Shown here: piece after piece, positions 21,286 to 64,000 of the stretch
Layout: every line of letters begins with the position of its first letter
Numbering within the stretch: position 1 is the stretch's first letter
Virus record (IMG/VR): IMGVR_UViG_3300047471_000325
Location: 1,927-65,926 of that record
Origin: a virus
Taxonomy: Duplodnaviria; Caudoviricetes
DNA length: 64,000 nt
Reading direction: 5' to 3' (one strand)
The notes under the pieces: generated by a model
What the model was told of the DNA's origin: nothing
What the model saw: the letters and a program-made list of their open reading frames with translations, nothing else
Databases searched by the model: none
Position numbers and translations under genes: made by a program

Positions 21286-21467
21286 TGGATGAAGGACAGC
21301 TTGGCATCGGCGAGGAACTGCACGCCGAGTTGATTGATTGCACGATTGTGAAGATACATCGAGGAGTTCTTGAGAACGTGCTGCGCCATCTTGACCGTGA
21401 TAGCTTGACGAACGATCAGACAGAAGCGCGTTTGGCACAACAGGTACGAGATATCTTGAATGGCTGA
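21285..21467 (+). CDS. Small hypothetical protein
   Basis: Coupled at both ends. Confidence 0.5.
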   Translation: MDEGQLGIGEELHAELIDCTIVKIHRGVLENVLRHLDRDSLTNDQTEARLAQQVRDILNG

Positions 21468-24628: not shown

Positions 24629-24870
24629 AGGAGGAGATAATGGACTTTACACCGACGGAAAAAGATAAGGTACCGGCCGCAGCATCAACGACTACCGCGA
24701 CCGTGACTTCGGAAGGCATGGTGTTTTCTCATGCGGCGCCACAGAAAACAGCGCTGCTTGAATGCTCTGTCTGCCATAACACCGACACGGTCGAAGGCGT
24801 GCTAGGGCGGCAGCACTATCCAGGGTCGTGCGGGCACTGCGGCAGCGCGTTCAGGGTCATCGAGAAATGA
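24625..24870 (+). CDS. Small zinc-ribbon protein
   Basis: CSVC...CGHC. Confidence 0.6.
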   Translation: MKEEIMDFTPTEKDKVPAAASTTTATVTSEGMVFSHAAPQKTALLECSVCHNTDTVEGVLGRQHYPGSCGHCGSAFRVIEK

Positions 24871-26316: not shown

Positions 26317-27551
26317 CGGGTTATTGCCGCGTCTGCTGCAAAGCGCTCGTATCTGTTTTTGATATGGGTATGATGAAGCTCTCAGGATTCCCGCTGACAG
26401 ATGATGTGCTGCCTGAATCACCGCTTGATCTCTGTCGCTGCCCACTGTGCGGCCTCGTGCAGCTTCGGCATACAGTCTCTCCTGATCGCATGTTCAGAGA
26501 GTATTGGTATCGAAGCGGCATTAATGAGGCGATGTGCGCTGAGCTGAAGGACGTCGTCGAGGATGCAGTAGAGCACCTAGGGTATCTGGAAGAAGATGAC
26601 GTTGTCGTGGATGTCGGTGCAAACGACGGGACGCTGCTCTCGGTCTATCCGAAGAACGTGAAGCGCGTTGCGTTTGAACCAGCAGAGAACTTACAGGAGC
26701 AAGTCAGTCAACATTGCGACGTGCTGATTCCTGACTACTTTCCGGATGGTGGCTTATTGGCGCAAGGCAGCGTCACACTGTTAACCTCCATCGCGTGCTT
26801 CTACGCCGTAGATAAACCCATGCAGTTCGTCTCTGCCGTGAACGACGTGTTGTCGGCAAACGGCATCTGGGTGGTACAATTCCAAGACCTCGCCCAGATG
26901 CTGGAGACGACGGCCTTCGACGATATCTGCCACGAGCACCTTTTCTATCCAAGCATGGCGTCGGTCGCCAGGATGCTTGAGCCGTTCGACTTGGCGATCA
27001 TTGACGCCGAGCGACGTGAGATTAACGGCGGGAGCCTTCGACTGACGATCGGGCGTCGGTGGCGCAAGGTCTCTCCGCATGTCTTGGAACTCTACATCAA
27101 GGAGAAGAACTGCGAGAGCCCGGTGGCGCTTCGCATGTTCGCGCAGCACGTCTATGAGATGCGGCTGGCGATACGCGATGTTATCGTCAATCAGCATGGC
27201 ACCGTGGACCTATATGGCGCATCGACGAAGGGCAACACACTGCTGCAGTTCTGCAATCTCGGCGCTGGGCTCATTCGGCAGGCATGGGAGCGGTCGCCGG
27301 CGAAGATTGGGCGCCGGACGGTGACCGGCATTCCTATCGTGAGCGAGGAGTCGGGTCGTGCTGATCCTCCGGATATGCTCTTCGTCGGCATCTGGCAGTT
27401 TCGTGAAGCAGTCATTCAGCGCGAGGCGGCATACTTAGAGGCGGGTGGCAAGCTACTCTTTCCACTGCCGACGGTTGAGATCATCTCAAATGGAAGCGAT
27501 GGTATTTACGAAGATCTCCGTACTCATCCCGACGCGCCAGCGGTTGGCTAG
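26313..27551 (+). CDS. NDP-sugar C-methyltransferase (Zn-binding N-terminus, C-methyltransferase C-terminus)
   Basis: 'CRVC...CPLCGLVQL', 'YWYRSG', 'DVGANDGTLL', 'FDDICHEH', 'NGGSLR', 'YGASTKGNTLLQ'. Confidence 0.9.
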   Translation: MTGYCRVCCKALVSVFDMGMMKLSGFPLTDDVLPESPLDLCRCPLCGLVQLRHTVSPDRMFREYWYRSGINEAMCAELKDVVEDAVEHLGYLEEDDVVVDVGANDGTLLSVYPKNVKRVAFEPAENLQEQVSQHCDVLIPDYFPDGGLLAQGSVTLLTSIACFYAVDKPMQFVSAVNDVLSANGIWVVQFQDLAQMLETTAFDDICHEHLFYPSMASVARMLEPFDLAIIDAERREINGGSLRLTIGRRWRKVSPHVLELYIKEKNCESPVALRMFAQHVYEMRLAIRDVIVNQHGTVDLYGASTKGNTLLQFCNLGAGLIRQAWERSPAKIGRRTVTGIPIVSEESGRADPPDMLFVGIWQFREAVIQREAAYLEAGGKLLFPLPTVEIISNGSDGIYEDLRTHPDAPAVG

Positions 27552-28179
27552 ACTCGCGACGATGCTCGACTCGTTCGAGCAGACGACGAGTGGTCGGGCG
27601 GACCTCGTGTTCCGCGTTGATGATGATGACATCGCGACGCAGGAGTATCTTCGCGACGATGCACGTGCGCACTGGCGGATGGTCGTCGGTCCGAGACTGG
27701 GCTATGCGAACCTTCCGAAGATGTACAACGAGCTGTACCAATGGTCGAATGGCGACGTGCTGATGGTCGGGAACGATGACATGATCTTTAAGACGCCCAA
27801 TTGGGACCACATCATCCTCGACGAGGCGAGGAAGTACCCAGATGGCCTCTTCGACTTCGGCGTCATGACACACAACTACTTGAACTTCCCGTTCGCGACG
27901 ATCAGCAAGCGGATGGCCGACTGCCTCGGGTTCTTCTTCGACGAGCGGTTCTTCTGGGGTGACATCTTCTGGCGGGACGTCACGTCGCGCTTTGGACGCG
28001 CGCTCCCGCTGCACTCGGTCGAAATTGATCATGACTGGGTCGGGTTCAAGCCAGACAGAGTCTTCTTGGCTGGAGACAGCGCACGTAGGGCGGATCACTC
28101 GAAGTATCACGCGATAGCCGTAGCAGAAGCAGCACGAAAATTGGAGGCAGTATGGTTCACGTCTGCGTCCCGGTCTTAA
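27499..28179 (+). CDS. GT2 family glycosyltransferase
   Basis: 'ISVLIPTRQR', 'FRVDDDD', 'VGNDDM'. Confidence 0.85.
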   Translation: MVFTKISVLIPTRQRLARLATMLDSFEQTTSGRADLVFRVDDDDIATQEYLRDDARAHWRMVVGPRLGYANLPKMYNELYQWSNGDVLMVGNDDMIFKTPNWDHIILDEARKYPDGLFDFGVMTHNYLNFPFATISKRMADCLGFFFDERFFWGDIFWRDVTSRFGRALPLHSVEIDHDWVGFKPDRVFLAGDSARRADHSKYHAIAVAEAARKLEAVWFTSASRS

Positions 28180-28775
28180 GGCGGTATGATCTGCTTCGTA
28201 ACTTGCTAGAATCGCTGAATTCCAGCACGATCCCCTATGAGGTGCGCATCCTCGATAATGGTCGCGATGCTGCTCGGTTGAAGCAGGCGACGGCATACTT
28301 TGATGTCGATGTCGAGACGCCACATCAGCCTTATGGCGTCGCTGAATCGTGGAACCACTTCATCAATCAGGTGCCAGAAGAGCGCGTCATCGTCAACGAC
28401 GACGTCATCTTCGCGCCCGACTCGCTGGAGCGCATGGTCGCGACGAAGTACGACCTCGCATGGTCGTATGAGGCGGGCTTCTCGTGCTTCCTCATCCGGG
28501 ACAAGTGCGTCGAGACAGTCGGACTATTCGATGAGAGTATTTCTCCTGGCTATGCCTACTTCGAAGATGAAGACTATATGCAGCGCGTGAACGGGAAGGG
28601 CACGAAGCCGTCGCTCATCAACTGCGGGCACGTCGAGTGCGGCGTGATGCACCCGGTCCAGAGCCAGACGCTGAAGGCAGCGACACGTAAGGAGCTGGGC
28701 GAGCACCACAAGAAGTTCATGGTCGCGCGTGCGAACTTCGCGGCGAAGTGGGGAGAAGCGGCGGTGCCGAAGTGA
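28152..28775 (+). CDS. GT2 family glycosyltransferase
   Basis: 'ILDNG', 'GVAESWN', 'VNDDV', 'VGLFDE...YFEDEDY'. Confidence 0.9.
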   Translation: MVHVCVPVLRRYDLLRNLLESLNSSTIPYEVRILDNGRDAARLKQATAYFDVDVETPHQPYGVAESWNHFINQVPEERVIVNDDVIFAPDSLERMVATKYDLAWSYEAGFSCFLIRDKCVETVGLFDESISPGYAYFEDEDYMQRVNGKGTKPSLINCGHVECGVMHPVQSQTLKAATRKELGEHHKKFMVARANFAAKWGEAAVPK

Positions 28776-29305
28776 TCACCTTCCTCGTCCCGACTCTTGG
28801 CCGTCGCTCGCTGAGGTCCACGCTTCGGTCCATCGAGACGTGGCCTGGTGACGAGATACTCGTGGTTGGGAACGTCGCTGGACTGAACGGTGGCAATCCT
28901 ATCGTGCGTTACGTGGAGTGCGCACCCGGCAAAGACTGGGGACACAGCGAGCGCAATTTCGCCACGCCGTTGGCGAAGGGTCGCTACATCGCACACATCG
29001 ACGATGACGACATCTACGTACCCGGCACGCGGGCGCTGATGCAAGACGCCATCGAGAAGACACCCGACCGTCCGGTGCTATTCCGGATGCAATTCCCGAA
29101 CGGCATCACGCTGTGGCACGAACCGAAGATTGAGTGTGGTAATGTCGGGACACCGATGTTCCTGATCCCGAACGTGCCTGAGAAGCTCGGCACGTGGAAG
29201 CCGTACGTTGGTGGTGATTGCGACTTTCTCGCAGAGTGTAAGTGGAGCGCAGAAGAAATCGTCTGGCGACCCGAGGTCACGGTAAGCCTTGGACATAATA
29301 CGTAG
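28772..29305 (+). CDS. GT2 family glycosyltransferase
   Basis: 'LVPTLGR', 'GHSERN', 'HIDDDD'. Confidence 0.85.
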   Translation: MITFLVPTLGRRSLRSTLRSIETWPGDEILVVGNVAGLNGGNPIVRYVECAPGKDWGHSERNFATPLAKGRYIAHIDDDDIYVPGTRALMQDAIEKTPDRPVLFRMQFPNGITLWHEPKIECGNVGTPMFLIPNVPEKLGTWKPYVGGDCDFLAECKWSAEEIVWRPEVTVSLGHNT

Positions 29306-29315
29306 GAGAAGCAGC

Positions 29316-29456
29316 ATGACACAAGAAGACTTCGAGATGGTGCAAAAAGGTTTCCTGTTGGTGGATCAGAATCTGGCACAAGTAACGCGGACGTTGAAGG
29401 CTATCCTCGACCAGATGATTTACATGAATGAACAACTGGCCGGGAAGAAGTCATAG
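29316..29456 (+). CDS. 46-aa hypothetical protein
   Basis: MTQEDFEMVQKG...; flanked by identical TAGGAGAAGCAGCATG. Confidence 0.55.
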   Translation: MTQEDFEMVQKGFLLVDQNLAQVTRTLKAILDQMIYMNEQLAGKKS

Positions 29457-29466
29457 GAGAAGCAGC

Positions 29467-29664
29467 ATGCAACTCATGTCAAGTTTTGGACTATACAAGG
29501 CGCTGAAAGATGAAGGTTTCGAGTTACCCCCGGAGTGCGGTGACATTACTTTGGAACTACCGGTCGATGGCGTCATCCGTCTCAACTGCCCGCTGATGTT
29601 GACTGGCGAGCGCCTCGCGCAGCTCGGTCGAGCATTGACCAAGATGGCGGAGGCGCAATCATGA
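29467..29664 (+). CDS. Hypothetical protein
   Basis: Strong SD before ATG 29467. Confidence 0.55.
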   Translation: MQLMSSFGLYKALKDEGFELPPECGDITLELPVDGVIRLNCPLMLTGERLAQLGRALTKMAEAQS

Positions 29665-29978
29665 ATTACAAAGACAAGACGAACGGCGATATTGTCACAG
29701 CGTGGCAGTGGGATGGTAAAGACGAAGTGTCACTTAAACAGATGCTCTTCGGACTGCTGTCATATACCGTTGAGGATGGCGAAGTCTCTGTGCGGCTTGG
29801 CAGGTTTGACTATCTTAAGATCGTGCCCGGCACATTCATCGTCAATGGTCCTGCGACCAATCAGCTTCGCACGTTCAACGCTGGAATCTTTGCCAAACAG
29901 TTTGAGAAGATCGTCGTAGCAGCACCAGCACCGACGCAGATTACTCATGATACGGAGAAGAAGGAGAAGCAGTCATGA
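29661..29978 (+). CDS. Small phage protein (AxQWxG family like)
   Basis: 'VTAWQWDG...PGTFIV...IFAKQFE'. Confidence 0.6.
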   Translation: MNYKDKTNGDIVTAWQWDGKDEVSLKQMLFGLLSYTVEDGEVSVRLGRFDYLKIVPGTFIVNGPATNQLRTFNAGIFAKQFEKIVVAAPAPTQITHDTEKKEKQS

Positions 29979-31264
29979 AAAACCTCCTCTGGGTCGGCGA
30001 TGCAGTCGTCCCCTCTGGCTTCGCTACGGCGACGCACAAGATCCTCGAGCATCTGATACCGCACTATAACATCAGTGTGCTTGGGATGAACTACAATGGC
30101 GATCCGCACGAGTACCCGTATCACATCTACCTCGCTGGCGTTGGTGGTGATGGCTTCGGCGTGAAGCGCATCGCGCAGATCGCGTTGAAGACACAAGCTG
30201 ACGTCATCGTCATCCAGCAAGATGGGTGGAACATCCCAGGATATATCCACTATCTTCAGCAGTTCGAAGAGACGAAGGACATCCCTGTCGTGGCTGCAGT
30301 GGCCGTCGATGGGAAGAACTTCAACGGACAATGGCTGCGCGGCGTGTCGCTCGCAATCTTCTGGACGCAGTTCGCGCTCGACGAAGCGCGGGCAGGTGGT
30401 TACCACGGTCCGGCGCAAGTCATCCCACTTGGCGTCGACCTCGACACCTACAAGCCGCTCGACAAGATCGAGACACGCAAGACGCACGGTGGCGCACTGG
30501 CACTCAGTGCCGTGCTCGGCAACCCGGACAATTTCATCGTCGGTAATGTGAACCGCAATCAGCCGCGCAAGCGCTGGGACTTGACGATCAAGTATTTCGC
30601 CAAGTGGATCGAAGACAACAACATCAATAATGCATGGCTCTACATGCATTCGGCGCCGACGGGTGACATGAGCGTGAATGTCATCGACCTCGCGCGCTAC
30701 TACAATTGTCTCGACCGCACGCTCTACATCGAGCCGCCGACGTTCACCGGGCTGACCGAAGAGGAGATGTGCAAGACCTATAACTGCTTCGACGTCTTGA
30801 TCAGCACGACGCAGGGCGAGGGGATGGGGCTGCCGGCGATGGAGGCGATGGCGTGCGGCGTGCCGTGCATCCTACCCAACTGGTCGGCCTTTGGCGATTG
30901 GGCGCGTGATGCAGCGGTGCTCGTACCATGCACCTCGACGCGGGTGGATTTCCCTTACGTGAACGTCATCGGCGGCGTGCCGGATGAGGGTGAGTTCATC
31001 GCAGAACTCGATAGGGTTTATCACGATAACAATTACAGAATGCACCTCGCATCGGGTGGTTTACGCCGCGTGCATGAGGATCGTTTCCGCTGGGCGACCA
31101 TCGGGTTGCGATATGTTGCAGCTATCGGGGAATTGCTCGCGGAGGTCGAGGCGAAGCAAGGCGACAAAGTCAATGCTGAACTTCTTAAGAAGGAACACGA
31201 AGAGATGCAGCAACGCCTCGTCGAGCGCCGGATGAAGATCATGAGCGGCGAGGTGCAGGCGTGA
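29975..31264 (+). CDS. GT-B (GT4 family) glycosyltransferase
   Basis: 'VIPLGVDLDTY', 'NRNQPRKR', 'YNCFDV..STTQGEGMGLPAMEAMACGVP'. Confidence 0.92.
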   Translation: MKNLLWVGDAVVPSGFATATHKILEHLIPHYNISVLGMNYNGDPHEYPYHIYLAGVGGDGFGVKRIAQIALKTQADVIVIQQDGWNIPGYIHYLQQFEETKDIPVVAAVAVDGKNFNGQWLRGVSLAIFWTQFALDEARAGGYHGPAQVIPLGVDLDTYKPLDKIETRKTHGGALALSAVLGNPDNFIVGNVNRNQPRKRWDLTIKYFAKWIEDNNINNAWLYMHSAPTGDMSVNVIDLARYYNCLDRTLYIEPPTFTGLTEEEMCKTYNCFDVLISTTQGEGMGLPAMEAMACGVPCILPNWSAFGDWARDAAVLVPCTSTRVDFPYVNVIGGVPDEGEFIAELDRVYHDNNYRMHLASGGLRRVHEDRFRWATIGLRYVAAIGELLAEVEAKQGDKVNAELLKKEHEEMQQRLVERRMKIMSGEVQA

Positions 31265-53114: not shown

Positions 53115-54677
53115 TTATTCGTCTTTCAGCGCCTTGACCCAGCCTGCCGCTGTCCGCTGTGCGATATCCTCGCCGTTACGCCGCGTCAGCAGGATGTCGC
53201 GGTCAATGGTGTGCTGCCCCTTCGGACCGACGGCGATGATGTCGTAGTACGCGATGGGAAACTTTTGTCCTGGACCATAGACACGATCGAGCGTCTGCGC
53301 CGAGCGTCCAGGTGAGTAGCCGCTGCTCATCGTCACGCACGTATGTGCCGCGCACATGTCGAGGCCGAAGCTGCCCGTGCCCTCGATGCCGGCGACGAAG
53401 ACTGGACCAGTCGGCGATGTCTCGGGCTTCAGTAGTGCAAGAGCGCGGAGTCGTTCGGCCTTCTTCTGGCCGCCCATGATCGTCGCTGTCTCGAACTGCG
53501 GGAACTTTACTTTGACTTCTGCCTCGGCGCGCAGCACCTCTGCTCTGAAGCGTCCCCACGCGACGAGGTGGAGGTTCTCGTCCTCAGCGAGCCGCTGCTC
53601 GATGAACCAGAGGAGGACGTCGAGCTTCTCGTGGCCGATCTCGCGAATAGGATCAACGGACCTGTTCGTCGGTGGCCAGTCTGGGTATTGAACATCGATG
53701 CCAGAATCTTCGACCCCACCGATGAACCCACCCGTGATCTGCGACAGCCGCAGCGCCTTGATCGCCGCCGTCGCTGAGGTTGCGACGTCGTTTGACGACA
53801 GCCACACGACCATCTCCTCGCGCATGTCCTTGTAGGCCTTCCACGTCTCCGGCGTCAGCGTCGTCGTCAGCGTCACCGGATCGAGCTTTGGCGGGAGATC
53901 GAGACAATCTTTTTGAAGACGCCTGACCGTGACTGGCGCGAAGCGTCGCTGCAGGTCGTCGAGGTTCGTCCACCCATTGACCTTCATGATCGGCCTGCCC
54001 CACGCGTTGACCATCGGACTGCCGCCGTTGCGCAGCACAGGACCTTGTATCGCGTATCTGGCCTTGAAGTGCGTCACGTACTTCGTGCCGATGATGCTCT
54101 CGTGAAGTATGTTCCCCTGTGAAAAAAGGTCGAGCGGCGAGTGAAACAGCGGCGTGCCATTGAGCAGCACGACGCGCCCGCATGCCCGGCGCAGCTGCAG
54201 GCAGGCCTTCGTCTGCTCGGCGGCGTGGTTCTTGACGAAGCTCGACTCGTCGAGGACGAGGAGCGTCTTCTGGTTGCAGAAGGGCAACAACTGTATTAAC
54301 CGGTTCTTGCTGCGCAGGAACTCGAAGTTCGTTACCGCCCACTGCAATCGACGTACGCCTGGAGCATCATTCAGCCATTGGCGACATCGAGCGTGGAATT
54401 CAGATACTTTAATGGGCAGGTCTAGCCAGGCGTGCTTGGCGATCTCGCCGATCTGTTCATCGTACCACACGTCGCGCACGGGCGCCGGGGAGACGACGAT
54501 CACCTTATCGATGACGCCGGCCTCGAAGAGGAACTGCGCGGCATCGACGATGATCTTGCTTTTTCCGGTCCGCATCTCCGACGCGACGAAGAAGTACGGA
54601 TGGTCGATCACCGCCTGCACATCCTCACGTTGATGCTGGAACGGTGCAAGACGACACCGACTGAAGTCGAGCGTCAC
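53115..54677 (-). CDS. SNF2-family helicase
   Basis: 'PFQHQ', 'EMRTGKS', 'LDES', 'LLNGTP', 'DCLDLPPK'; GTG start coupled to the exonuclease stop. Confidence 0.88.
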   Translation of the reverse strand: MTLDFSRCRLAPFQHQREDVQAVIDHPYFFVASEMRTGKSKIIVDAAQFLFEAGVIDKVIVVSPAPVRDVWYDEQIGEIAKHAWLDLPIKVSEFHARCRQWLNDAPGVRRLQWAVTNFEFLRSKNRLIQLLPFCNQKTLLVLDESSFVKNHAAEQTKACLQLRRACGRVVLLNGTPLFHSPLDLFSQGNILHESIIGTKYVTHFKARYAIQGPVLRNGGSPMVNAWGRPIMKVNGWTNLDDLQRRFAPVTVRRLQKDCLDLPPKLDPVTLTTTLTPETWKAYKDMREEMVVWLSSNDVATSATAAIKALRLSQITGGFIGGVEDSGIDVQYPDWPPTNRSVDPIREIGHEKLDVLLWFIEQRLAEDENLHLVAWGRFRAEVLRAEAEVKVKFPQFETATIMGGQKKAERLRALALLKPETSPTGPVFVAGIEGTGSFGLDMCAAHTCVTMSSGYSPGRSAQTLDRVYGPGQKFPIAYYDIIAVGPKGQHTIDRDILLTRRNGEDIAQRTAAGWVKALKDE

Positions 54678-55558
54678 GCCTTCCTCACTGGATACACCCC
54701 AAGCTTCGCCTGCGCCGCGATCCGCTTCGTCTCGACTGGAAAGTCCTTGCTCAGGATCCAATCCCAGTATCCGACGTCGGCCGCCGTCATAGGCTTGCCG
54801 CCGTACTTCCCCCAGCGCGTGAAGCAAGGGACGTCCTTGACGTAGCAGAACTTTCCCTCGAGGTCGATCATCGTCGGCCACTGGAGTGCGTGCAGTGCGT
54901 CGAGGTCGTGGGGCAGTAAGTCACCATCGTCGTTGAGGCTTGCGTTAAGTTGCAGTTCGATGACTTCCGCAACAGCTTCGACGTCCGCCATCGCACCGTG
55001 CGCACCTGGGAATGCTTGATCAGTATACTTCTTGTAGAGGTGCGTCAGGCTGCGCGGCACGAGCAGCGCCTCGAGCCGGTCGGCATCGATGATTCGCGCA
55101 TCACCAATCGACCACTCGACGCCGGCACGAGCGAACTCGGCCGAGAGGATGCGGAGGTCAAAGCGGATGTTTTTGCCGGCATAGTCGACGTTGGTGAAGC
55201 CGACGGCGAGATTTGGCGCGAGGTGCTTGAAGGTGGGCCAACCACGCGGATCGATGCAAGGCCAATTGACGCATTCATCTGACTTATCGATTGGATGACC
55301 TGCTAGTTCAGCATTGCATGTCCGACACAGCCAGAAGTCCTCATCCTTGTAGCCGTGCACCTCGGTTGCTTCCGCCGGGATCGGCACGCCCGGATTGACC
55401 AATGTCCGATACTTCTTTACGTCGCGCCCATCGTGATAGTAGACCTGGAACGCCAGCTCCACGATGCGGTCATTCGTCGTGTCAAGGCCTGTCGTCTCGG
55501 TGTCGAGGACGATGAGCGGACGGGGGAGGGTGAGGAGGTCGGTGATCATGATTCGCAC
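54674..55558 (-). CDS. DEDDh 3'-5' exonuclease (DnaQ / Pol III epsilon like)
   Basis: 'LDTETTGL', 'NIRFD', 'AHGAMADV'; C-terminal 'WGKYGGKP...YWDWIL' module. Confidence 0.9.
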   Translation of the reverse strand: MRIMITDLLTLPRPLIVLDTETTGLDTTNDRIVELAFQVYYHDGRDVKKYRTLVNPGVPIPAEATEVHGYKDEDFWLCRTCNAELAGHPIDKSDECVNWPCIDPRGWPTFKHLAPNLAVGFTNVDYAGKNIRFDLRILSAEFARAGVEWSIGDARIIDADRLEALLVPRSLTHLYKKYTDQAFPGAHGAMADVEAVAEVIELQLNASLNDDGDLLPHDLDALHALQWPTMIDLEGKFCYVKDVPCFTRWGKYGGKPMTAADVGYWDWILSKDFPVETKRIAAQAKLGVYPVRKA

Positions 55559-56342: not shown

Positions 56343-56531
56343 TCATTCTTTCACCTCCACGAAGCCGCACCGAATGCGTACGCAGTCTTTGATAAACCTT
56401 TCTAGGCCGCCGACAACTTCAGGCTCAAGCACAATTGTGTTTATCACCTCGGTCCAATTCTCGGTTGTCAGGGTGATACTGAAGCCATCATAGGAGACGT
56501 AGACGCCATCGCCGATATAACGCTTGATCAT
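56343..56531 (-). CDS. Small protein, paralogue of 62851-63030
   Basis: 'YIGDGVYVSYDG..ITLTTEN...NTIVLEPEV'. Confidence 0.7.
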   Translation of the reverse strand: MIKRYIGDGVYVSYDGFSITLTTENWTEVINTIVLEPEVVGGLERFIKDCVRIRCGFVEVKE

Positions 56532-56869
56532 AAGTCCTCAACCTGTGTGATAACGCGGACTCCAGGTAGGTGGTGAAAATTACTCGACCTAGCGCCGAGT
56601 ACGACCAGTCGCTTACCGATAGCGGCGGCGTACCCCATCTCGAAGTGCCGACCTCCGGTGCCAGCATTATGCCAGGCAATTGGATTCCAGAGTAGCAGTA
56701 CATCGCAGCGCTCGATGTCCATGATATCCATCATCGCAGCATCAGGCCCATCGTCATCGATCTGTGTCAGCCACCTACTCGTTACGCTGTGACCAAGCTT
56801 CTCGATGGCGTGCATGAGCGTGATAGCGTCATTCCGAGTGGGGTATGGGGCTGCTATATACACTCTCAT
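56528..56869 (-). CDS. Nucleoside 2-deoxyribosyltransferase-like protein
   Basis: 'VYIAAPY', 'DIMDIERCD', 'GGRHFEMGYAAAIGK'. Confidence 0.8.
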   Translation of the reverse strand: MRVYIAAPYPTRNDAITLMHAIEKLGHSVTSRWLTQIDDDGPDAAMMDIMDIERCDVLLLWNPIAWHNAGTGGRHFEMGYAAAIGKRLVVLGARSSNFHHLPGVRVITQVEDL

Positions 56870-57165: not shown

Positions 57166-57319
57166 CTTCGGCATCCTCATCGTCAATGTCATAACCTTCA
57201 AGATTGCTTTCGTTAAATTCATGCGGATGCAGACTCTGATCTTTCTCATGCATCGGGCAGAACGTCTTCTCGGTCATCGCCACGCACCAGGTGATCGCAC
57301 AGGGATACATAGACGTCAT
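57158..57319 (-). CDS. Small Cys/His protein with acidic tail
   Basis: MTSMYPCAITWC...FCPMH...DIDDEDAEDD, coupled at both ends. Confidence 0.45.
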   Translation of the reverse strand: MTSMYPCAITWCVAMTEKTFCPMHEKDQSLHPHEFNESNLEGYDIDDEDAEDD

Positions 57320-58386
57320 CCTTTCAGCAACATGATTACGGCGATGTGGTCGTCTCCATCGGTGAGGAGTAGCGGACTCTTAGCGTCCTTCAGCTTCAGT
57401 GTGATGTGCGACTGCGTCGCCGCGTTGAGAAAGTCCAGTACGAAGCCTGCGTTCACGCAGACCTTCAGCGGCTGGCCGTCATACTCACCGGCAACAACCT
57501 CGCTTGCCGCGCCGACCTCAGCCGACTGCGTTGTCAGCTCGAGCTGTCCAGCACTAAGCGATAGATACGTTGCCTTGTTGTCTTCCGACACCAGCACGAT
57601 GCGCCGCAGTGCGGCAGTCAACGCCAGCCTATCGATCGTCAACATCAAGGCATTGTCCTGCGGGATGATGCGCTCGTAGGCGGGGAACTTCCCCTCCAGC
57701 ATGCGTGAGACGAGCAGCCTACCACCAGAGGCGAAGAAGATATGGCGCTCGCCGACGGTCAGCTCCATCGTCCCCTGCTCAGAGCCACCGGCCAGCACGT
57801 CGAGCGCCTTCACTGGTATAGTAATGCTACCATCCGGCCCGCTGCGACTCATTGTCGCCAGCGCGAGACGCCTGCTGTCGGTTGCGACCATCGCCGCGCC
57901 GTCGCCACTCATCGTCAGTAGGGCGCCCTTCAGGATGTACTTGCTGCTGGCCGCGTTGATGGCGTAGCGCGTCTTGGCGATCAGCATGCGAAAGTCTGCG
58001 GCGTCGAACTGATACGTCGTGCCGCTGGCCTCGGGTAGCGCCGGGAAATCGTTAACGGATAGCGATGAGAGGCGAGACTTAAACGCGCCACAGCTGACTG
58101 CTGCATGCATCTTGTCTAGCTGCATGCTGACGTCGGCATCAGGAAACTGCTCCACCAGTGAGAGCAGCTTCGCGGCCGGTAGCGCCACCTCGCCAGGCTC
58201 GTCGACGCGTGCCGCGCAGTCGGTCGACAGGCCAACCTCGACATCCGTCGCATAGAGGTGCAGACCGTCACTGTCACCGCGTAGGCGAACGTGGCCGAGG
58301 ATGGCGATCGCTGGCTTGCTTGGGACGACGCGGTTGAGAAGTCTCAATTCAGCCGCGAGGACTTGTGAGTTTACAACGATGTGCAT
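57316..58386 (-). CDS. dnaN: DNA polymerase III beta sliding clamp
   Basis: 'ATDVEVG', 'VATDSRRLA', 'SRMLEGKFPAYERIIP', 'NAGFVLDFL'; start ATG 58386. Confidence 0.95.
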   Translation of the reverse strand: MHIVVNSQVLAAELRLLNRVVPSKPAIAILGHVRLRGDSDGLHLYATDVEVGLSTDCAARVDEPGEVALPAAKLLSLVEQFPDADVSMQLDKMHAAVSCGAFKSRLSSLSVNDFPALPEASGTTYQFDAADFRMLIAKTRYAINAASSKYILKGALLTMSGDGAAMVATDSRRLALATMSRSGPDGSITIPVKALDVLAGGSEQGTMELTVGERHIFFASGGRLLVSRMLEGKFPAYERIIPQDNALMLTIDRLALTAALRRIVLVSEDNKATYLSLSAGQLELTTQSAEVGAASEVVAGEYDGQPLKVCVNAGFVLDFLNAATQSHITLKLKDAKSPLLLTDGDDHIAVIMLLKG

Positions 58387-58394
58387 GCTGCTCC

Positions 58395-58784
58395 TTATGT
58401 TCGATGCTCTTTCAACACTTGCTCCACCAGCCACCGCATATCAAATCCCACGCACCACGCCTCGGGAATCAAATCCCACCCGTCGCGGTCCATCACCGTC
58501 CTCGGATGCACGATCAGCGTCTGCTCGATGCCGCGGTGTTCTTTCCAGATAACATAACGGCAATGGCCTGCAGCGGCAAGACGAGCGCAGCAGAGTTGCT
58601 GGTCACCTGGACTATCGAAGTGCGGCGTCGCGTGCTTTCCTTCCCAGCGACTCGTCCGTCCGCAGCCGACGACCTCGATGTCGGGAGCGCCGTTCGTCGC
58701 ATAGGCAAGCAGCATAAAGCTTGGCGCTTGACGCTTCAACTCTTTCCTAAATAACGACTTCAATTCGCCTTCACGCTTGGACAT
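58395..58784 (-). CDS. VRR-NUC / PD-(D/E)xK nuclease
   Basis: 'GAPDI...WEGK'. Confidence 0.7.
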   Translation of the reverse strand: MSKREGELKSLFRKELKRQAPSFMLLAYATNGAPDIEVVGCGRTSRWEGKHATPHFDSPGDQQLCCARLAAAGHCRYVIWKEHRGIEQTLIVHPRTVMDRDGWDLIPEAWCVGFDMRWLVEQVLKEHRT

Positions 58785-58790
58785 ATATCA

Positions 58791-58819
58791 AGACTAGCAC
58801 AAAATTTTAGTGGTGTCTA
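58791..58819 (-). promoter_or_regulatory. Promoter TAGACA-N17-TAGTCT with extended -10 TG, likely leaderless
   Basis: The -10 ends 6 nt before ATG 58784; no SD. Confidence 0.6.
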
Positions 58820-61800
58820 CTTACAATCCGCCCAGTTCTTTCCAGTCCCACATTCCCACAAGATCGGTACTTTCAGCGGAAAGCTCTGCGCGTTCAGGAT
58901 CGCCGAGACCTTCTCTTTCGTCTCCGGCGTCGTGGCGTCACCAAGTACGGCGTCGTGATTCGTGATGCGCAGGATGAAGCCTATCTCCTTACGCTGCGCG
59001 TGCAGCTCGACGAGCTTCTGCTTCATGATGTCGGCGCCGGTGCCCTGCAGCACTCGGTTGAGACCGATGTATGGCTTATAGTTGTTGACGCAGCGACTTC
59101 GTCGTCCGAGCAACGTCTTGACGTAGCCGCGGTGCTGAAACTGTCGGTGCAATATGTCGTTCTTCTTGCAGTACTCGTCGCACTCGTTCTTCATCAAGTG
59201 CGAAGCACGATCCAGCAGCGCGCCAGCCTCTGGGTGCGCCTTCTTGTAGGCAGCCTCGATCTCCTTGATGGTCTTCAGCCTCGGGTCATCCCAGCGCTTT
59301 GCTCTGCGTATCTCTTCGCCGACGCGCTCCGAGATGAAGCCCATCATCACGGCAAGCTTGATGCTCTTTGCGCCATACTGTGCCGCGAAGTTGTAGCTCT
59401 TCGTGTGCGTATAGTTCATGTCGGGCTTGTAGGCGACCAGCATCTCTTGCATCTTCTTGTGAAATGACATCCACGGGTCGTCTTTATAGGCTTGAAGCAG
59501 CTTAGCGTTACCCGAATATTGCACGAGCAGTCGAAACTCGATCTGCGCGGCATCACCTTCGAAGTACTCGCCAGAGCCAGGCACGAACAGACGACGGGGG
59601 AAGAGTTCGTCGCCGAAGATCTCACCGTGATTATAGGCATTCGGCACCTGCTGAACGATGCCGATCGAGAAGCGTCCGCTTACCGTGCCGCCGTCGTCGC
59701 TCGCCAGCTGATTGATGTTATAGCGAAGAACGCCATCTTGGATGTGCTCTGGGTACGCCTTAAAGATCTTGCTGTTCAGCGACGCATACTGACTTGCGCG
59801 CTGCCCCTTGCGAACCAGCGGATGATCGACTTCGTTCAGCACGCTCTCGGAAAACGAGTCTGGTACTACTAAGTGTAGCGACTCGATGAGCCGCTTCCAC
59901 CCTGCCGCCGTATGTTCGAATGCGAAGCCACATTCGCGGCTGACCTCCCACAGCAGCCGATCGTGCTCGGCCATGCATTCGCGGCCGTACTGTTCGAGCA
60001 GCAGCACGTCGATCGGACTGCCGTTCTTCTCCATCTCGACGACGGTCGGGATGACGGCGTCTTCGAGGTCGTGTACCGCGCGCAGTTCCTGCTTACTGAT
60101 CTCAGGATCCATGACGGCGCGCAGCCTACCAACGAGTCGCGCTGTCGCCCGCTCACGCTCTGCTGCCTGCGCTGCCGTAAATCGATGATGCTGCGTCTCG
60201 TCGAGTCGCAGTGCAAACTGCTCGCCTGGAAAGTAGTCGGCTGCCAGCAGGTCGAGACTGAAGCGCTTGCGACGGTCGTCGAGTAGAGCCGCCGTATGTT
60301 GTACGTCGGAGAACGTACAACCTTGTTCTTCAAGGTCGATGCCCCACTCGCGCGCCACGTGGACGTCGAACTTCGTCTTGCTATTAACAATTTTCTTACC
60401 GCGCAGCTGCTCCAGCGCCCAGCGCTTGACGGTCTCTTCACTGAGGTTGCCATCAGCGAAGCCGAACGGCAGGAAACGACACAGCTGCCCGTCAAGCGTG
60501 CTTACCGTCACGCCGCATGGCCTGTCGCCGCCGGCCCAATTCAGGCCGGTGGTGGCGAAGTTCAGAACCACTTCGTCGATGCCGGTGAGGTCAGGCGGCT
60601 CGTCTGGCACGTAGTCAGTCGGCGATGACGCATCGAGAAACTGTGCCAGCGTCTGCCCTGAGCGCGCTTCTTCGAAGAGCGTCTCGGAGGTATCGGCCGG
60701 CATCTGCTCGACGACGAGGGGCTCGAGCCACACTGTCGCCAGCGGGATCAGTTGCTCGCGATGCTGCTTGATCGTCGCGCGCTCGACGTCAGTCAGGCTG
60801 CTTGACTCTGAAACGAAGAACTTTCCGTCTCGCGTCAGCAGGCGGTGGCTGTTCAGGGCCAGCTCAGCCTTGAATCTAACTGGGTCGAAATCAGTCTCAG
60901 GCTCCTGCGGCCTGGATTCCGGCTGAGGACTGGCTAGGGCCGGCTGTTCGGAGGTCGGGCTAGACTTCTCTAGGCTGGGCTCGGGCCCGGCAGGGACAGG
61001 CTGTACTGCCCGGATGAAGCTCAGCGCGGAGATGGTCGGTTTGGAGCTCGCCAGCTGGCTCTGCTGTATCGGGCGGGGCCGTGCATCGTCGAGCGGCATG
61101 GCGTCCAGCGTCAGGTCGTAGATATTCGTCAGGTCAGCGTCAGATCGGAGCTTTAGCACGTTGCGGCCATATTCTTGACCGAATGCGCGATAGTCGACGC
61201 TGTGTTGCCAACGCTTAATGCCCTCTTCACTTGATCCGAACTTCCGCTCGACAGTCGTACAGTCTGGGTGCTGCTCACGTAGACTCTCGGCCATCAGCCA
61301 GCGACCGTCTCTCGACAGAATACTTCGTCCTACGTCGCATGGCGTCAGACGAGAGTCGTAGCCGTCGTTACACGAGGCGCACTGTTGACATGTAATGCAG
61401 TGCTCCTGCCAGTCCGCTTCGACTCCACCTGAACCCTTATAGAGTTCGTCGGCGTTGCCGCCCTTCATCGTCAGGGTCGGCTTCTTGTACATCAAGAACG
61501 CGTTGAAGAGTACCGTACAGTGCCCGTCTTTCAGGATTCTCAGACTCAGGTCAGTGTCCTCATTATAGCGCCCACGCCAGCGCATCGGCGTGCCGTCAGT
61601 ATTCGTTAGATCGTTACGCAGGAGAATGCCAGAATAGCACCGCGTATTGAGCGTGATCGGCTTGATCTTGGCACCTTGCTTGCGCGGCGCAAAATAATCG
61701 TAGTTAAATGCCGCCATCGCGACATCTTCATAGCGGTCGACCCAGTCCTCGATGGCGCAGTGTAGGATACCGCTGTCGACCTCGACCTTCAGGTTGTCCT

Positions 61801-62359
61801 GAAAGCGACAGAAGCCCGAGATGTTATCATCGAAGATCCAGTGACGCTTTGCGCCAGTCGCCACTGCATGATCCCAGACGAAGTTACGCGCCGGGATACT
61901 CCCTTGCCCGAGGTTGCTGAATGGCAGAACGATGATCTTCTCACGCGGCATAACACGCGCATACTGCTCGAGATCTTGCGGCTCGATGACAATGTGATAT
62001 GGCACGTGGATAAATTCTTCGAAGCACTTCTGCGTGAGACGTGTATCTGCACGGTTCTTGCTGATGATGTAAATAGGATAGCGTGGCGTGACTTTCGTAC
62101 TCGTATACACCTTATCACTCGCCTTGCGTATCTCCGCACGTGGGTGCCAGATGAACTTCGTCTTCGCGTGAAGGTGCTGCCCGACAAGCTGTGCGAAGTC
62201 AGCTCTATCTTTATCTGTACGAAAGTGTACTAACAGCGTCTGCTTTGGTTGAAGATCGCTATGGCTATACTCTGGCATGCCGCGCCACTGCTCTTGCCAG
62301 TCATGCTCGACGTCGATGAGGTTCTCTTGCTCGATGTCGCCCATCAAGTCGTCGGTCAT
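58817..62359 (-). CDS. Fusion: TAGT/GREB1-like glycosyltransferase + linker + degenerate 3'-5' exonuclease + family A DNA polymerase
   Basis: GT motifs 'YPIYIISKNR', 'ARNFVW', 'HWIFDDNI', 'YNEDTDLSL', 'MKGGN'; PolA motifs 'SGRFS', 'DAAQIEFR', 'KSYNFAAQYG', 'GYVKTLLGRR', 'QGTGADIMK', 'HDA'. Confidence 0.88.
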   Translation of the reverse strand: MTDDLMGDIEQENLIDVEHDWQEQWRGMPEYSHSDLQPKQTLLVHFRTDKDRADFAQLVGQHLHAKTKFIWHPRAEIRKASDKVYTSTKVTPRYPIYIISKNRADTRLTQKCFEEFIHVPYHIVIEPQDLEQYARVMPREKIIVLPFSNLGQGSIPARNFVWDHAVATGAKRHWIFDDNISGFCRFQDNLKVEVDSGILHCAIEDWVDRYEDVAMAAFNYDYFAPRKQGAKIKPITLNTRCYSGILLRNDLTNTDGTPMRWRGRYNEDTDLSLRILKDGHCTVLFNAFLMYKKPTLTMKGGNADELYKGSGGVEADWQEHCITCQQCASCNDGYDSRLTPCDVGRSILSRDGRWLMAESLREQHPDCTTVERKFGSSEEGIKRWQHSVDYRAFGQEYGRNVLKLRSDADLTNIYDLTLDAMPLDDARPRPIQQSQLASSKPTISALSFIRAVQPVPAGPEPSLEKSSPTSEQPALASPQPESRPQEPETDFDPVRFKAELALNSHRLLTRDGKFFVSESSSLTDVERATIKQHREQLIPLATVWLEPLVVEQMPADTSETLFEEARSGQTLAQFLDASSPTDYVPDEPPDLTGIDEVVLNFATTGLNWAGGDRPCGVTVSTLDGQLCRFLPFGFADGNLSEETVKRWALEQLRGKKIVNSKTKFDVHVAREWGIDLEEQGCTFSDVQHTAALLDDRRKRFSLDLLAADYFPGEQFALRLDETQHHRFTAAQAAERERATARLVGRLRAVMDPEISKQELRAVHDLEDAVIPTVVEMEKNGSPIDVLLLEQYGRECMAEHDRLLWEVSRECGFAFEHTAAGWKRLIESLHLVVPDSFSESVLNEVDHPLVRKGQRASQYASLNSKIFKAYPEHIQDGVLRYNINQLASDDGGTVSGRFSIGIVQQVPNAYNHGEIFGDELFPRRLFVPGSGEYFEGDAAQIEFRLLVQYSGNAKLLQAYKDDPWMSFHKKMQEMLVAYKPDMNYTHTKSYNFAAQYGAKSIKLAVMMGFISERVGEEIRRAKRWDDPRLKTIKEIEAAYKKAHPEAGALLDRASHLMKNECDEYCKKNDILHRQFQHRGYVKTLLGRRSRCVNNYKPYIGLNRVLQGTGADIMKQKLVELHAQRKEIGFILRITNHDAVLGDATTPETKEKVSAILNAQSFPLKVPILWECGTGKNWADCK

Positions 62360-62850: not shown

Positions 62851-63030
62851 TCATCTCGTTACTCCCGGTGTCTGTGCTTTAATGAGTTCGACGAACACAT
62901 ACAACGCCGATAGGACTTCTGGCTCCAGTACGATAGTGTTCGTCACCCCGAGTCCGTTCTCAGTCGTCAAGATGATCTGATAGCCGTCGAATGCAATATA
63001 GACGCCGTCGCCTAGATAAGTCTTGATCAT
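62851..63030 (-). CDS. Small protein, paralogue of 56343-56531
   Basis: 'YLGDGVYIAFDG..IILTTENG..NTIVLEPEV'. Confidence 0.7.
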   Translation of the reverse strand: MIKTYLGDGVYIAFDGYQIILTTENGLGVTNTIVLEPEVLSALYVFVELIKAQTPGVTR

Positions 63031-63038
63031 TGTCCAAG

Positions 63039-63386
63039 TCAGCATATGTCACCGTGCGAGCGATCGGGTTCAGCGGGCGGCACGAAGCCAGCCATTAGGC
63101 CGGTCCACTCCTTAACGATCGGTCCGCCTAATTGGCCCTGCTCAAACTGTTTCGTGATCTCCTTGACCTGCCTGCGGAATCCTTCGGTCGCCGTCAATGG
63201 CCCATGATGGAGGTCATCCCATGACAGTTCTGATTCATTATTTTTCTCTTGGCTTTCAGCATCAAGAAGCGCTAAATTGCCGATATCAACTAATGCCGCG
63301 CGAAGAGTAAGTCTATCAACAGGCGGGTGCTGATATACGATTGTCGCTAACACTGCGATAGCTCGTAACCGTTCTCCTTCTGTCAT
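63039..63386 (-). CDS. Hypothetical protein ending in EWTGLMAGFVPPA
   Basis: SD and ATG supplied by repeat C. Confidence 0.55.
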   Translation of the reverse strand: MTEGERLRAIAVLATIVYQHPPVDRLTLRAALVDIGNLALLDAESQEKNNESELSWDDLHHGPLTATEGFRRQVKEITKQFEQGQLGGPIVKEWTGLMAGFVPPAEPDRSHGDIC

Positions 63387-63550
63387 TTCGGCTCCTCTCG
63401 CGGCTCCACGGCGGGACGGGCGGTTTTCCGCTTTGGCTTCGGCGCATTCTTCGGGCATCGCGGATTGCAGCACGCCCACACCGTTGGACAGATTGTGTAG
63501 CCGCACTTGCGGCACTTCGGAGGATTGAGGAACTGGCCCTCAGTCGTCAT
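63383..63550 (-). CDS. 55-aa Cys-rich protein ending RPAVEPREEPK
   Basis: MTTEGQFLNPPKCRKCG...CCNPRCP; ATGA-coupled at both ends (below the ORF-track cutoff). Confidence 0.55.
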   Translation of the reverse strand: MTTEGQFLNPPKCRKCGYTICPTVWACCNPRCPKNAPKPKRKTARPAVEPREEPK

Positions 63551-63831
63551 GGTTCCTTCCCCTCGCTCACGCGCTCAGGCGGGGCGGCTGCGAGTTTCGA
63601 TTCTGCTTCTTCAGCACGTAACCGCCAGTGCTTCGCATCCGTGTTCTCGCCAGCCGTATATCCCTTCACGGTGTAGTGCAGAATGGCGCGAGTGTGCTCA
63701 ACTTTGAGGCGTTCGATCTCGACATGCAGCGGTTTAGTCTGGGCATCCAGATCCATCTGTGAATACTTCAACCGTCGATGCTCGTCCGGTTCCGCTGTCG
63801 GTGCAGGCGGGGCGGCAGCCTGGAGGAGCGC
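63388..63831. repeat. Right copies of anchor repeats C (63388-63421), B (63554-63590), A (63788-63831)
   Basis: Identical to the copies at 47014-47754. Confidence 0.95.
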
Positions 63832-64000
63832 GGCGAGTTGATCGGCACAGACCAAGTAGATATTTGAACGTGTTGTCCAGCGCCTACACGCCTCAACATC
63901 GTCCTCTTTAAGGGCATACTCATCACAGTCAGCGGTCTTCTCTTGCCATTTAGCTATCAGCGCCGTCAGGTTGACGCGGAGCGCCGTCAGCTCCTGAAAA
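63547..64000 (-). CDS. Hypothetical protein containing repeats A and B (start uncertain, may lie beyond the window)
   Basis: 'AALLQAAAPPAPTAEP...AAPPERVSEGKEP'. Confidence 0.5.
   Translation of the reverse strand, partial: FQELTALRVNLTALIAKWQEKTADCDEYALKEDDVEACRRWTTRSNIYLVCADQLAALLQAAAPPAPTAEPDEHRRLKYSQMDLDAQTKPLHVEIERLKVEHTRAILHYTVKGYTAGENTDAKHWRLRAEEAESKLAAAPPERVSEGKEP

Follow-up and report, generated by a model that had tools for sequence, protein, structure and literature searches.

A viral protein that joins a TAGT-family glycosyltransferase to a family A DNA polymerase, and its possible part in DNA modification

The fusion gene and its two halves

The DNA analyzed here is a 64,000-nucleotide stretch, called the window throughout, that comprises bases 1927-65926 of a linear 65,926-bp IMG/VR virus record (IMGVR_UViG_3300047471_000325; Caudoviricetes), which is referred to as G000. 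On its minus strand lies a single open reading frame (ORF) that encodes a TAGT glycosyltransferase followed by a family A DNA polymerase. An earlier note, made by a model from the sequence alone, had described this ORF as uninterrupted over 1180 aa, and the translation confirms this. Both Pfam families, TAGT (PF20691) and DNA_pol_A (PF00476), score above their curated cut-offs within the same 1180-aa protein. Handles beginning with P, L and G denote proteins, loci and genome records, respectively, and P0001 is the fusion protein of this record. The segment borders given here come from an alignment of 36 fusions, which are 37-73% identical to P0001, and from scripted motif positions.

58817..62359, minus strand: whole gene, TAGT glycosyltransferase plus family A DNA polymerase; one ATG-started ORF, 1180 aa, 0 internal stops
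58817-58819, minus strand: stop codon of the fusion gene, from the ORF translation
62090..62302, minus strand: N-terminal conserved segment, residues ~20-90, with W-x-G-M-P ... L-x-V-H-F ... D-R-x-x-F and no Pfam match
61457..62080, minus strand: TAGT (PF20691) catalytic core, predicted GT-A, residues 94-301, with R158, D177-D178-N179 and E267-D268-T269-D270; Pfam E 1.1e-38
61145..61456, minus strand: TAGT C-terminal extension, residues 302-405, from the alignments; predicted local distance difference test (pLDDT) 67-93 in an AlphaFold2 (AF2) model
60890..61144, minus strand: Pro/Ser/Gln-rich linker, residues ~406-490, variable in length and poorly conserved outside one short motif
61016-61033, minus strand: six-residue linker motif, residues 443-448, shared by the majority of the 36 fusions and by the methylase-like-PolA protein of L102
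60728..60889, minus strand: small helical segment, residues 491-544, conserved in the 36-fusion alignment, at the head of the polymerase module
59960..60607, minus strand: exonuclease-like domain, residues ~585-800, from phrog_17 and NCBIfam PolI/exonuclease matches
58826..59854, minus strand: family A polymerase domain, residues 836-1178; Pfam PF00476 E 1.7e-23

All seven motifs that had been quoted in the earlier note are present in the P0001 translation. Scripted searches place YPIYIISKNR at residues 94-103, HWIFDDNI at 173-180, the NEDTD block at 265-270, MKGGN at 298-302 and RWQHSVDY at 383-390, and ARNFVWDH and NTRCYS were found by reading the translation. Likewise, the proposed order of domains (TAGT/GREB1-like, linker, helical domain, exonuclease-like, PolA) is borne out by Pfam, PHROGs, the predicted fold and the alignment.

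The N-terminal half matches the TAGT profile over its full length (profile positions 1-205 of 205; residues 94-301; E 1.1e-38, 133.7 bits against a cut-off of 27.5), and a genome-level search with PF20691 gives E 8.7e-42. In PHROGs it matches phrog_842, 'beta-glucosyl-HMC-alpha-glucosyltransferase', at 6e-34 over residues 92-305. The AF2 model of residues 1-430, made from an alignment of 40 fused and stand-alone TAGTs, has a mean pLDDT of 80.5 and a predicted template-modeling score (pTM) of 0.76, with the first 40 residues poorly defined. A Foldseek search of the PDB with this model returned 138 matches at E<=0.001; among the matches listed, which include WrtF, TarP, TarS, BcsA and GnT-I, all are GT-A enzymes and none is close, with TM-scores of 0.25-0.47. 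A hidden Markov model search of the PDB sequences with the TAGT alignment yielded no solved structure with a significant sequence match. As modeled, the N-terminal half folds as a GT-A, so the glycosyltransferase reading, for which a Foldseek search of this region had been proposed as a check, stands.

Within the TAGT domain, R158, D177-D178-N179 and E267-D268-T269-D270 show little or no variation across the 36 fusions and the 40 TAGTs, and D177, D178, N179, N266, D268, T269 and D270 are invariant both in 36/36 fusions and in 40/40 fused and stand-alone TAGTs. The active-site pattern published for TET-linked GT-A enzymes is R...DDD...EDY/F (preprint 10.1101/2023.12.21.572611); relative to this pattern, P0001 has N in place of the third D and T in place of Y/F. 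To judge by these residues, the TAGT domain looks catalytically intact and active.

The N-terminal segment that precedes the core is kept across the 36 aligned fusions and is duplicated in some of them. It is also found in stand-alone TAGTs of ~365 aa, sometimes at the end of the ORF upstream (e.g. L046:4081-4713). The AF2 model is weak over this segment (pLDDT 36-87), and a Protein Atlas search with residues 15-92 returned small unnamed viral clusters only (score 0.84), which serves as a lead only. The C-terminal extension carries a Cys-rich insert at residues 320-341, which some relatives lack, as well as conserved DGRW...QHPD and RWQH-x-VDY blocks. The six-residue motif in the linker could be a candidate docking site for the phage clamp, whose gene is described below; a complex prediction with the motif and the clamp gave a score of 0.26 against a mark of 0.32, which speaks neither for nor against this idea. 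The helical segment that follows the linker belongs to the polymerase and not to the glycosyltransferase, since it is kept by an unfused 753-aa relative in L101, whose match starts at residue 500.

The C-terminal half matches DNA_pol_A over residues 836-1178 (E 1.7e-23, 83.6 bits, cut-off 34.3) and the DNA polymerase family phrog_17 over residues 625-1180 (2e-44). Motif A residues D936, Q939, E941 and R943, motif B residues K987, F991 and G996, and the H1135-D1136 pair of motif C are each found in 36/36 fusions, and position 995 of motif B is Y in 32 and F in 4 of the 36. The polymerase half, which keeps its catalytic residues, looks active. The ExoI motif (window 60542-60565, minus strand) is degenerate, with N600 and A602 in place of the expected D and E. 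Position 600 is N in 30/36 fusions and D in 6/36, position 602 is A in 29/36 and E in 7/36, and it is the more distant fusions that keep D/E. The Pfam exonuclease model does not match P0001. From these substitutions, the polymerase's own 3'-5' exonuclease site looks dead.

Recurrence of the fusion and modifiers in the same position

We searched 5.8 billion proteins for relatives of P0001 and, with clustering at 90% identity, obtained 111 matches. Fifty-seven of these (query included) carry both PF20691 and PF00476, so that the same architecture, for which the earlier note had proposed a search, is found in 56 other clusters that are 34-75% identical. The remaining matches are 42 TAGT proteins without PolA and 12 bacterial Pol I proteins. 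The fusion clusters come from JGI, ENA, NCBI and Logan, where they are found on separate contigs, the longest of 108 kb, and we read the fusion gene directly in L001/G001 (58% identical), L081/G004, L094, L096, L098 and L106.

The linker had been singled out as the place where a stop or frameshift might emerge in independent sequence. We found neither, with 0 differences and 0 gaps. A single 9965-nt Logan contig (run X1) spans window positions 60300-61500 with 0 differences and 0 gaps, and a contig of run X2 covers 60382-61500, also without differences or gaps; X1 and X2 may both represent the source sample. Parts of the linker stretch are also covered, with 0 differences, by runs X3 and X4, which derive from other samples. 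Indels at the linker were seen only in a 292-nt contig of low depth that belongs to a relative. Left out of this comparison were runs X5-X19, whose shares of the stretch are small. The Logan runs that hold the stretch are labeled as soil and rhizosphere metagenomes. Since the same open architecture occurs in 56 other clusters on separate contigs, chance or misassembly is ruled out, and we exclude, for practical purposes, an assembly artefact as the source of the fusion. The TAGT-PolA protein is a solid, widespread and previously undiscussed architecture. In a 39%-identical relative, L002, the match to the fusion is spread over two plus-strand ORFs about 1.2 kb apart (4313-6112 and 7352-8866); this split could reflect an inserted element, an intron or a truly split gene.

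The fusion was not found in cultured phages: among 293 phage records that match P0001, none covers 80% of it, and the best 40 of the 293 match only the polymerase half, at 23-25% identity. Twenty-five cultured-phage records match residues 1-430 (E<=0.001), and in these the match is a stand-alone gene, 25-39% identical. That TAGT genes usually stand alone, as the earlier note had stated, holds for 78 of the best 80 IMG/VR loci and for 25/25 of these cultured-phage records. A scan of species genomes gave a single relative, 36% identical, on a 3.7-kb contig of a metagenome-assembled genome, and no prophage copy; hence no host is indicated.

TAGT domains are also joined to other proteins, as a Pfam scan of the matches reveals.

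P0062: PolB-exo plus PolB plus TAGT, with TAGT C-terminal
P0064, P0066: TAGT-UDG-Exo-PolA, of a different, canonical PolA lineage
P0065: TAGT-RecT
P0094: TAGT-SNF2 helicase
P0083: TAGT-N6_N4 DNA methylase
P0063: FkbM methyltransferase-ParB_N-TAGT
P0089: TAGT-radical SAM
P0047, P0058: tandem TAGTs

TAGT is thus found on three polymerase lineages and in both orientations, indicating independent fusion events.

We scanned JGI metagenomes with patterns from the polymerase half and obtained 29 loci. Among these are sister polymerases without TAGT, 55-56% identical, in L101 (753 aa, helical segment kept) and L103 (619 aa). The L102 protein (L102:8588-11848, plus strand) has 1086 aa, of which the polymerase half matches residues 568-1180 of P0001 at 55% identity. 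Its N-terminus gives a weak N6_N4_Mtase match (E 1.1e-4, below the cut-off) in which motif-I-like and motif-IV-like stretches are visible. An exhaustive search of representative proteins (5693 matches at E<=0.001) added many unfused polymerases of 600-700 aa and five more polymerases of the same clade with an N6_N4_Mtase-like N-terminus (P0113, P0114, P0115, P0122 and P0128). These N-terminal matches are weak, at 20-27 bits against a cut-off of 26.7, which P0115 alone passes; P0115 also carries an intein/LAGLIDADG insert. Modifier genes are found next to the polymerase as well. In L103, bona fide N6_N4 methylase genes flank the unfused polymerase, and the upstream one (E 3e-29) overlaps the polymerase start. 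A D12 methylase gene lies downstream of the polymerase in L101, and an FkbM-type methyltransferase gene abuts the fusion gene in G001 and L094.

We built a quick maximum-likelihood tree from 71 polymerase halves, in which the polymerases that are unfused or methylase-fused branch from among the TAGT-fused forms. The TAGT label changes 6-7 times on this tree, and at least five of the changes are forced by well-supported branches. Fused forms are over-sampled in the tree because they were found through TAGT, so it says nothing on how common the fusion is. These patterns suggest that DNA modifiers come, go and replace one another at the polymerase N-terminus and in the gene slot upstream of it, which together serve as their docking place.

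The sister polymerases bear on whether the transferase might serve the polymerase by substrate channeling, that is, by modifying free nucleotides that the attached polymerase then incorporates as modified dNTPs. A fusion would bring the two active sites close, and the polymerase motifs are unusual in that residue 937 of motif A is A in 34/36 fusions and the residue after the HD of motif C is A in 17/36 and E in 15/36. However, the unfused and methylase-fused sisters share these motifs at 55% identity, which indicates that the motifs are not tied to TAGT, and a long flexible linker suits a tether rather than a channel. All known phage DNA glycosyltransferases, moreover, act on polymer DNA (PMC13326640, PMC13216743). 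We therefore consider channeling highly unlikely. The repeated loss or swapping of the module on the polymerase tree would also fit a non-catalytic accessory, a module that binds DNA or nucleotide-sugars and aids processivity or regulation. This we regard as very improbable, given that all of the residues invariant in the 40 TAGTs (DDN, NEDTD) are kept down to 37% identity, which would be unexpected for a relic.

Replication neighbors, target and acceptor

Two further replication genes share the operon of the fusion gene.

57316..58434, minus strand: phage beta sliding clamp (DnaN-like), with three DNA_pol3_beta Pfam domains; same operon as the polymerase
54674..55558, minus strand: stand-alone RNase T/DnaQ-like exonuclease; Pfam RNase_T E 6e-13; same operon

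A clamp homologue lies downstream of the polymerase in 13/20 related loci or genomes, and homologues of the RNase T/DnaQ-like exonuclease are found in 12/20 related loci. No second DNA polymerase was seen; the neighbors of the fusion gene are a clamp, an exonuclease, an SNF2 helicase and a primase-like gene. An 832-aa gene at window 1905-4403 matches primase/polymerase-type PHROGs. We rejected the idea that P0001 is a DpoZ/Z-base polymerase, since the best NCBIfam model, NF038380, gives only 136.6 bits against a cut-off of 500; the PurZ family (PF00709) was found in 0/3 fusion genomes, with the positive control matched in 14/14 genomes.

Our preferred interpretation, to which we give a probability of about 60%, is that P0001 is a phage replicase with a tethered glycosyltransferase that glycosylates phage DNA at or just behind the replication fork. 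The family A polymerase half would be the phage's replicative polymerase, paired with the beta clamp that the phage encodes. As the exonuclease site within the polymerase looks dead, proofreading may fall to the separate DnaQ-like exonuclease, acting possibly in trans. The GT-A domain, on its flexible linker, would use a nucleoside diphosphate (NDP)-sugar and, through its DDN motif, a divalent metal, and would place the sugar on phage DNA at or just behind the fork, so that the genome would be marked as it is made. We infer that the sugar is transferred to DNA, that this happens during replication and that it serves to evade host nucleases. Tethering of glycosylation to the replisome had already been proposed in the earlier note; it is still something that we infer, and it is now backed by the independent TAGT fusions and by the methylase-like domains in the same slot, which support a DNA-modifying module tethered to a replicase.

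Phage DNA glycosylation, as described in print, begins with a hydroxyl handle. The TAGT enzyme of phages T2/T6 adds a second glucose to glucosyl-hydroxymethylcytosine (hmC) in DNA (PMC13216743), and TET-linked GT-A enzymes glycosylate DNA that contains 5-hydroxymethylcytosine (5hmC) (PMC8256090; preprint 10.1101/2023.12.21.572611). At the nucleotide level, the handles 5hmC, 5-hydroxymethyluracil (5hmU) and 5-hydroxycytosine (5hoC) are made by thymidylate-synthase homologues (PMC13326640), and at the DNA level handles are made by TET/JBP-type dioxygenases, often together with a C5-methylase (PMC8256090, PMC13229309). We searched for such genes in the full record and in a related set of 37 viral records of at least 20 kb. 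Thirty-six of these have TAGT relatives, and 13 are rated at least 90% complete, G001 among them; the remaining record, G005, was included for its polymerase only and is not known to carry TAGT. The TET/JBP family (PF12851) is absent from the record and from 37/37 related records. Thymidylate synthase (PF00303) is absent from the record and occurs in 1/37, namely G005 only, and C5-methylase (PF00145) is absent from the record and occurs in 2/37. The generic 2-oxoglutarate oxygenase families PF13640 and PF13532 are found in 0/5 of the genomes searched for them (G000, G001, G004 and two Vibrio phages). The fusion-bearing G001, which is rated 100% complete, has none of PF12851, PF00303, PF00145, PF13640 and PF13532, and the 12 TAGT records rated at least 90% complete (G005 excluded) have none of PF12851, PF00303 and PF00145. 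The positive controls were detected (TET/JBP of Nonlabens phage P12024L, E 2.8e-29; T4 td and the gene-42 region, E 3.9e-17).

These absences weigh against the replicase-tethered DNA glycosylation that we prefer, and so do four further points. First, ~65% of ~25,000 glycosyltransferase contigs lack a 5mYOX or ThyS neighbor, and such contigs were judged 'less likely' to act on DNA (preprint 10.1101/2023.12.21.572611). Second, GREB1, a TAGT-family protein, O-GlcNAcylates the estrogen receptor, which is a protein (PMC7968844). Third, in Vibrio phage 1.076.O the TAGT gene lies between portal and head-morphogenesis genes. Finally, the 6-7 changes on the polymerase tree indicate that the TAGT module is dispensable for polymerase function. 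With regard to the first of these, the fusions argue that at least the fused part of the orphan glycosyltransferase set is probably DNA-directed.

The handle searches also decide how the premise of a hydroxymethylated acceptor base fared. The earlier note had seen no TET/JBP gene or hydroxymethylase in the window; this is correct, and the genome-wide scan extends it to the full record for PF12851 and PF00303. The premise itself is not supported, with no TET/JBP, thymidylate synthase or C5-methylase in either the record or G001. A classical route could nevertheless apply, in which the sugar goes on 5hmC, 5hmU or 5hoC and the handle-maker either falls within the portion of the genome that was not sequenced or has diverged beyond recognition. 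The record is 79% complete by CheckV, so a handle-making gene could sit in the missing part; G001 is complete, yet also lacks one. The record truncates an ORF at either end (G000 bases 1-690 and window 63547-63999, both minus strand). By our own count the frames of these two end ORFs are one base out of register, so the record does not simply close into a circle, in line with the 79% completeness. Divergent handle-makers are conceivable too: 83-95% of phage 5mYOX contigs carry a Pfam annotation, and thousands have no PF12851 annotation (PMC13229309).

The classical route has further support in that every characterized member or neighbor of the family uses such a handle (PMC13216743, PMC13326640), and in cultured phages. 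We examined ten TAGT-carrying cultured phages, with T4, which has no match to residues 1-430, as a control that was not counted. In P12024L, a PF12851 gene immediately precedes the TAGT gene; PF12851 was found in 0/9 of the others. At least one thymidylate-synthase-family gene is present in 6/7 of the large phages with relatives (henriette, Aeh1, PTm1, Kuja, phage 65 and GD virus 1). Against this stand Vibrio phages 1.124.O and 1.076.O, whose records are labeled partial and which have TAGT but neither family, in addition to the 12 nearly complete TAGT records, G001 among them. The TAGT subfamily nearest to P0001 thus appears, as a rule, to have no known handle-making enzyme alongside it, and we regard the classical route as possible but somewhat doubtful.

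A different solution within the preferred mechanism is that the transferase acts without a hydroxyl handle and places the sugar directly on a canonical base, or that its acceptor arises from a new chemistry; we consider this unlikely. In the handle-free variant, an exocyclic amine might be the target, by analogy with the amino-methylases in the slot of the sister polymerases. If either were true, the replicase itself would be writing a DNA modification of a new class, and many 'orphan' viral GT-A genes that were set aside earlier would be DNA enzymes. Were the acceptor a canonical base, the reaction would be new nucleic-acid chemistry.

The position of the stand-alone relatives raises the question of a protein target, in which case the polymerase, the clamp, another replisome protein, a virion protein or a host protein would be glycosylated and the fusion would provide co-expression or localization only. 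We clustered 1618 ORFs from 82 IMG/VR loci (L001-L082) and G000. A stand-alone TAGT gene is followed by a large-terminase gene within ~0.3-3 kb in 34/83 loci (e.g. L024:3964-4803, then 5143-6357), and portal is next in 11; two members of the terminase cluster were checked by Pfam. This placement just upstream of terminase, the location of TAGT in Vibrio phage 1.076.O, the activity of GREB1 on a protein (PMC7968844) and the presence of other glycosyl- and methyltransferases among the virion genes of the window would all fit a protein target. On the other side, the fusion partners are all DNA enzymes (PolA twice, PolB, RecT, SNF2, DNA methylase, ParB_N), and DNA methylase-like domains sit at the same position on sister polymerases. 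The slot upstream of terminase, moreover, also houses late phage DNA methylases. In addition, the prototype T2/T6 TAGT acts on DNA (PMC13216743). Given these points, we think that a protein target is quite unlikely and that glycosylation of phage DNA by a tethered transferase remains the better account.

Other stand-alone TAGT genes have varied surroundings. In Vibrio phage 1.124.O, TAGT adjoins a Dam-type methylase gene and a dUTPase gene; in phage henriette it lies between clamp-loader and polymerase genes, and in GD virus 1 it follows two helicase genes. Vibrio phage Kuja (L129, NC_048827.1 30264-32952; Ackermannviridae), which has one thymidylate-synthase-family gene, carries two adjacent TAGT-labeled genes beside a 'DNA end protector' gene.

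The glycosyl- and methyltransferases of the window lie in a block of sugar-enzyme genes among the virion genes (16424-31264, plus strand).

17492-18307, plus strand: CmcI/rhamnosyl O-methyltransferase
24828-25625 and 28152-28775, plus strand: GT2 enzymes
26313-27551, plus strand: sugar C-methyltransferase
29975-31264, plus strand: GT4, a borderline 'GT4-conflict' match

We rejected this block as a pathway for extending a DNA glycan, since the fusion-bearing G001 and G004 have nothing equivalent, which indicates that the block is not coupled to the fusion.

Several small genes were observed near the polymerase. Between the clamp and exonuclease genes, a 113-aa protein (window 56528-56869, minus strand) gives a sub-threshold match to nucleoside 2-deoxyribosyltransferase (E 1.7e-4, 22 bits, cut-off 28.8) and could be relevant to nucleotide metabolism. 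Two small paralogues with similar N-terminal halves, of 64 aa (62851-63045, minus strand) and 62 aa (56343-56531, minus strand), flank the polymerase-clamp segment and have a relative in L109. A Lys/Ala-rich protein of 160-250 aa is conserved in 8 related genomes or loci, encoded ahead of the polymerase; it has no family match and resembles a small DNA-binding protein more than an enzyme. We rejected the protein of G000, G001 and G004 as a hidden dioxygenase, since it has no H-x-D motif and is small and basic. Examples of its gene are as follows.

L088:1007-1633 (equal to G000 1007-1633, just left of the window), minus strand: Lys/Ala-rich protein
L085:11175-11666, minus strand: Lys/Ala-rich protein
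L086:13741-14496, plus strand: Lys/Ala-rich protein

Comparison with known systems

Glycosylation of their DNA is one of the main ways in which phages evade restriction and CRISPR, and it has been a source of enzymes for epigenetic sequencing. To our knowledge, all phage DNA glycosylation described so far is carried out by free-standing transferases acting on a hydroxylated pyrimidine. The TAGT family was reportedly defined by Iyer et al. 2013. Our searches of the TAGT and phage-glycosyltransferase literature, which did not extend to the founding TAGT paper or to supplements, found no published glycosyltransferase-polymerase or methylase-polymerase fusion, and within these bounds they agree with the earlier note's statement that no such fusion had been described. 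In preprint 10.1101/2023.12.21.572611, the words 'fused' and 'fusion' do not appear and only adjacency to polymerase genes is reported. The TAGT plus PolA architecture is already machine-annotated in public protein sets.

A fusion partner that is unmistakably a DNA enzyme ties to DNA a large set of viral GT-A genes for which no partner pathway is known, and makes their chemistry directly testable. If bulky modifications are added at replication, they could bias the recovery of such phages in metagenomes, and a polymerase that copies glycosylated templates may be a useful tool.

The nearest characterized relative by family is the TAGT prototype, the beta-glucosyl-HMC alpha-glucosyltransferase of T2/T6, which resembles P0001 in its Pfam and PHROGs families, in being a GT-A enzyme and in being a phage sugar-on-DNA enzyme. 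The T6 TAGT has been placed beside GT2 (PMC13216743). The T6 enzyme stands alone and its acceptor is the glucose on 5hmC, in a phage that has an hmC-making thymidylate-synthase homologue and an alpha-glucosyltransferase (alpha-GT). In contrast, the TAGT domain of P0001 is fused to a polymerase, and our searches turned up neither an hmC route nor a comparable first glycosyltransferase. T2/T6 are absent among the 25 phage records that match residues 1-430 at E<=0.001, which indicates that the kinship is distant.

The GT-A enzymes linked to TET/JBP, such as that encoded at gp26-gp27-gp28 of P12024L, belong to the same Pfam family, and the P12024L enzyme is 25% identical to P0001 over residues 96-314. 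Enzymes of this type adjoin a dioxygenase gene, and often a methylase gene, whereas the fusion record, G001 and 37/37 related records have no dioxygenase. The TET/JBP association that gave the TAGT family its name is thus not seen for P0001; it is also not universal, as T6 illustrates. The methylase-like-PolA sister fusions are of the same clade as P0001 and share its plan of a modifier, a low-complexity linker with the same short motif, and a polymerase. They differ in having an N6_N4_Mtase-like N-terminus, weakly matched, instead of TAGT.

In eukaryotes, DNMT1 is recruited to PCNA at replication forks, and it too is a DNA modifier coupled to a replisome. It differs from the arrangement proposed here in that it methylates DNA, binds a clamp rather than being fused to a polymerase, maintains a pattern instead of marking a whole genome, and is cellular rather than viral. 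A closer parallel is the alpha-GT of phage T4, which co-purifies with the gp45 clamp (PMC13216743, citing Sommer et al. 2004). Like the proposed role of P0001, it is a case of a DNA glycosyltransferase held at the replisome, such that glucosylation can accompany replication (PMC13216743). The T4 enzyme is a GT-B of family PF11440 that binds the clamp non-covalently, and promoter strength matters more for it than clamp binding (PMC13216743), whereas P0001 is a predicted GT-A joined covalently to its polymerase. The fusion of a modifier to a polymerase looks like a general strategy to mark DNA as it is made, and would be the covalent counterpart of the pairing of alpha-GT and clamp in T4.

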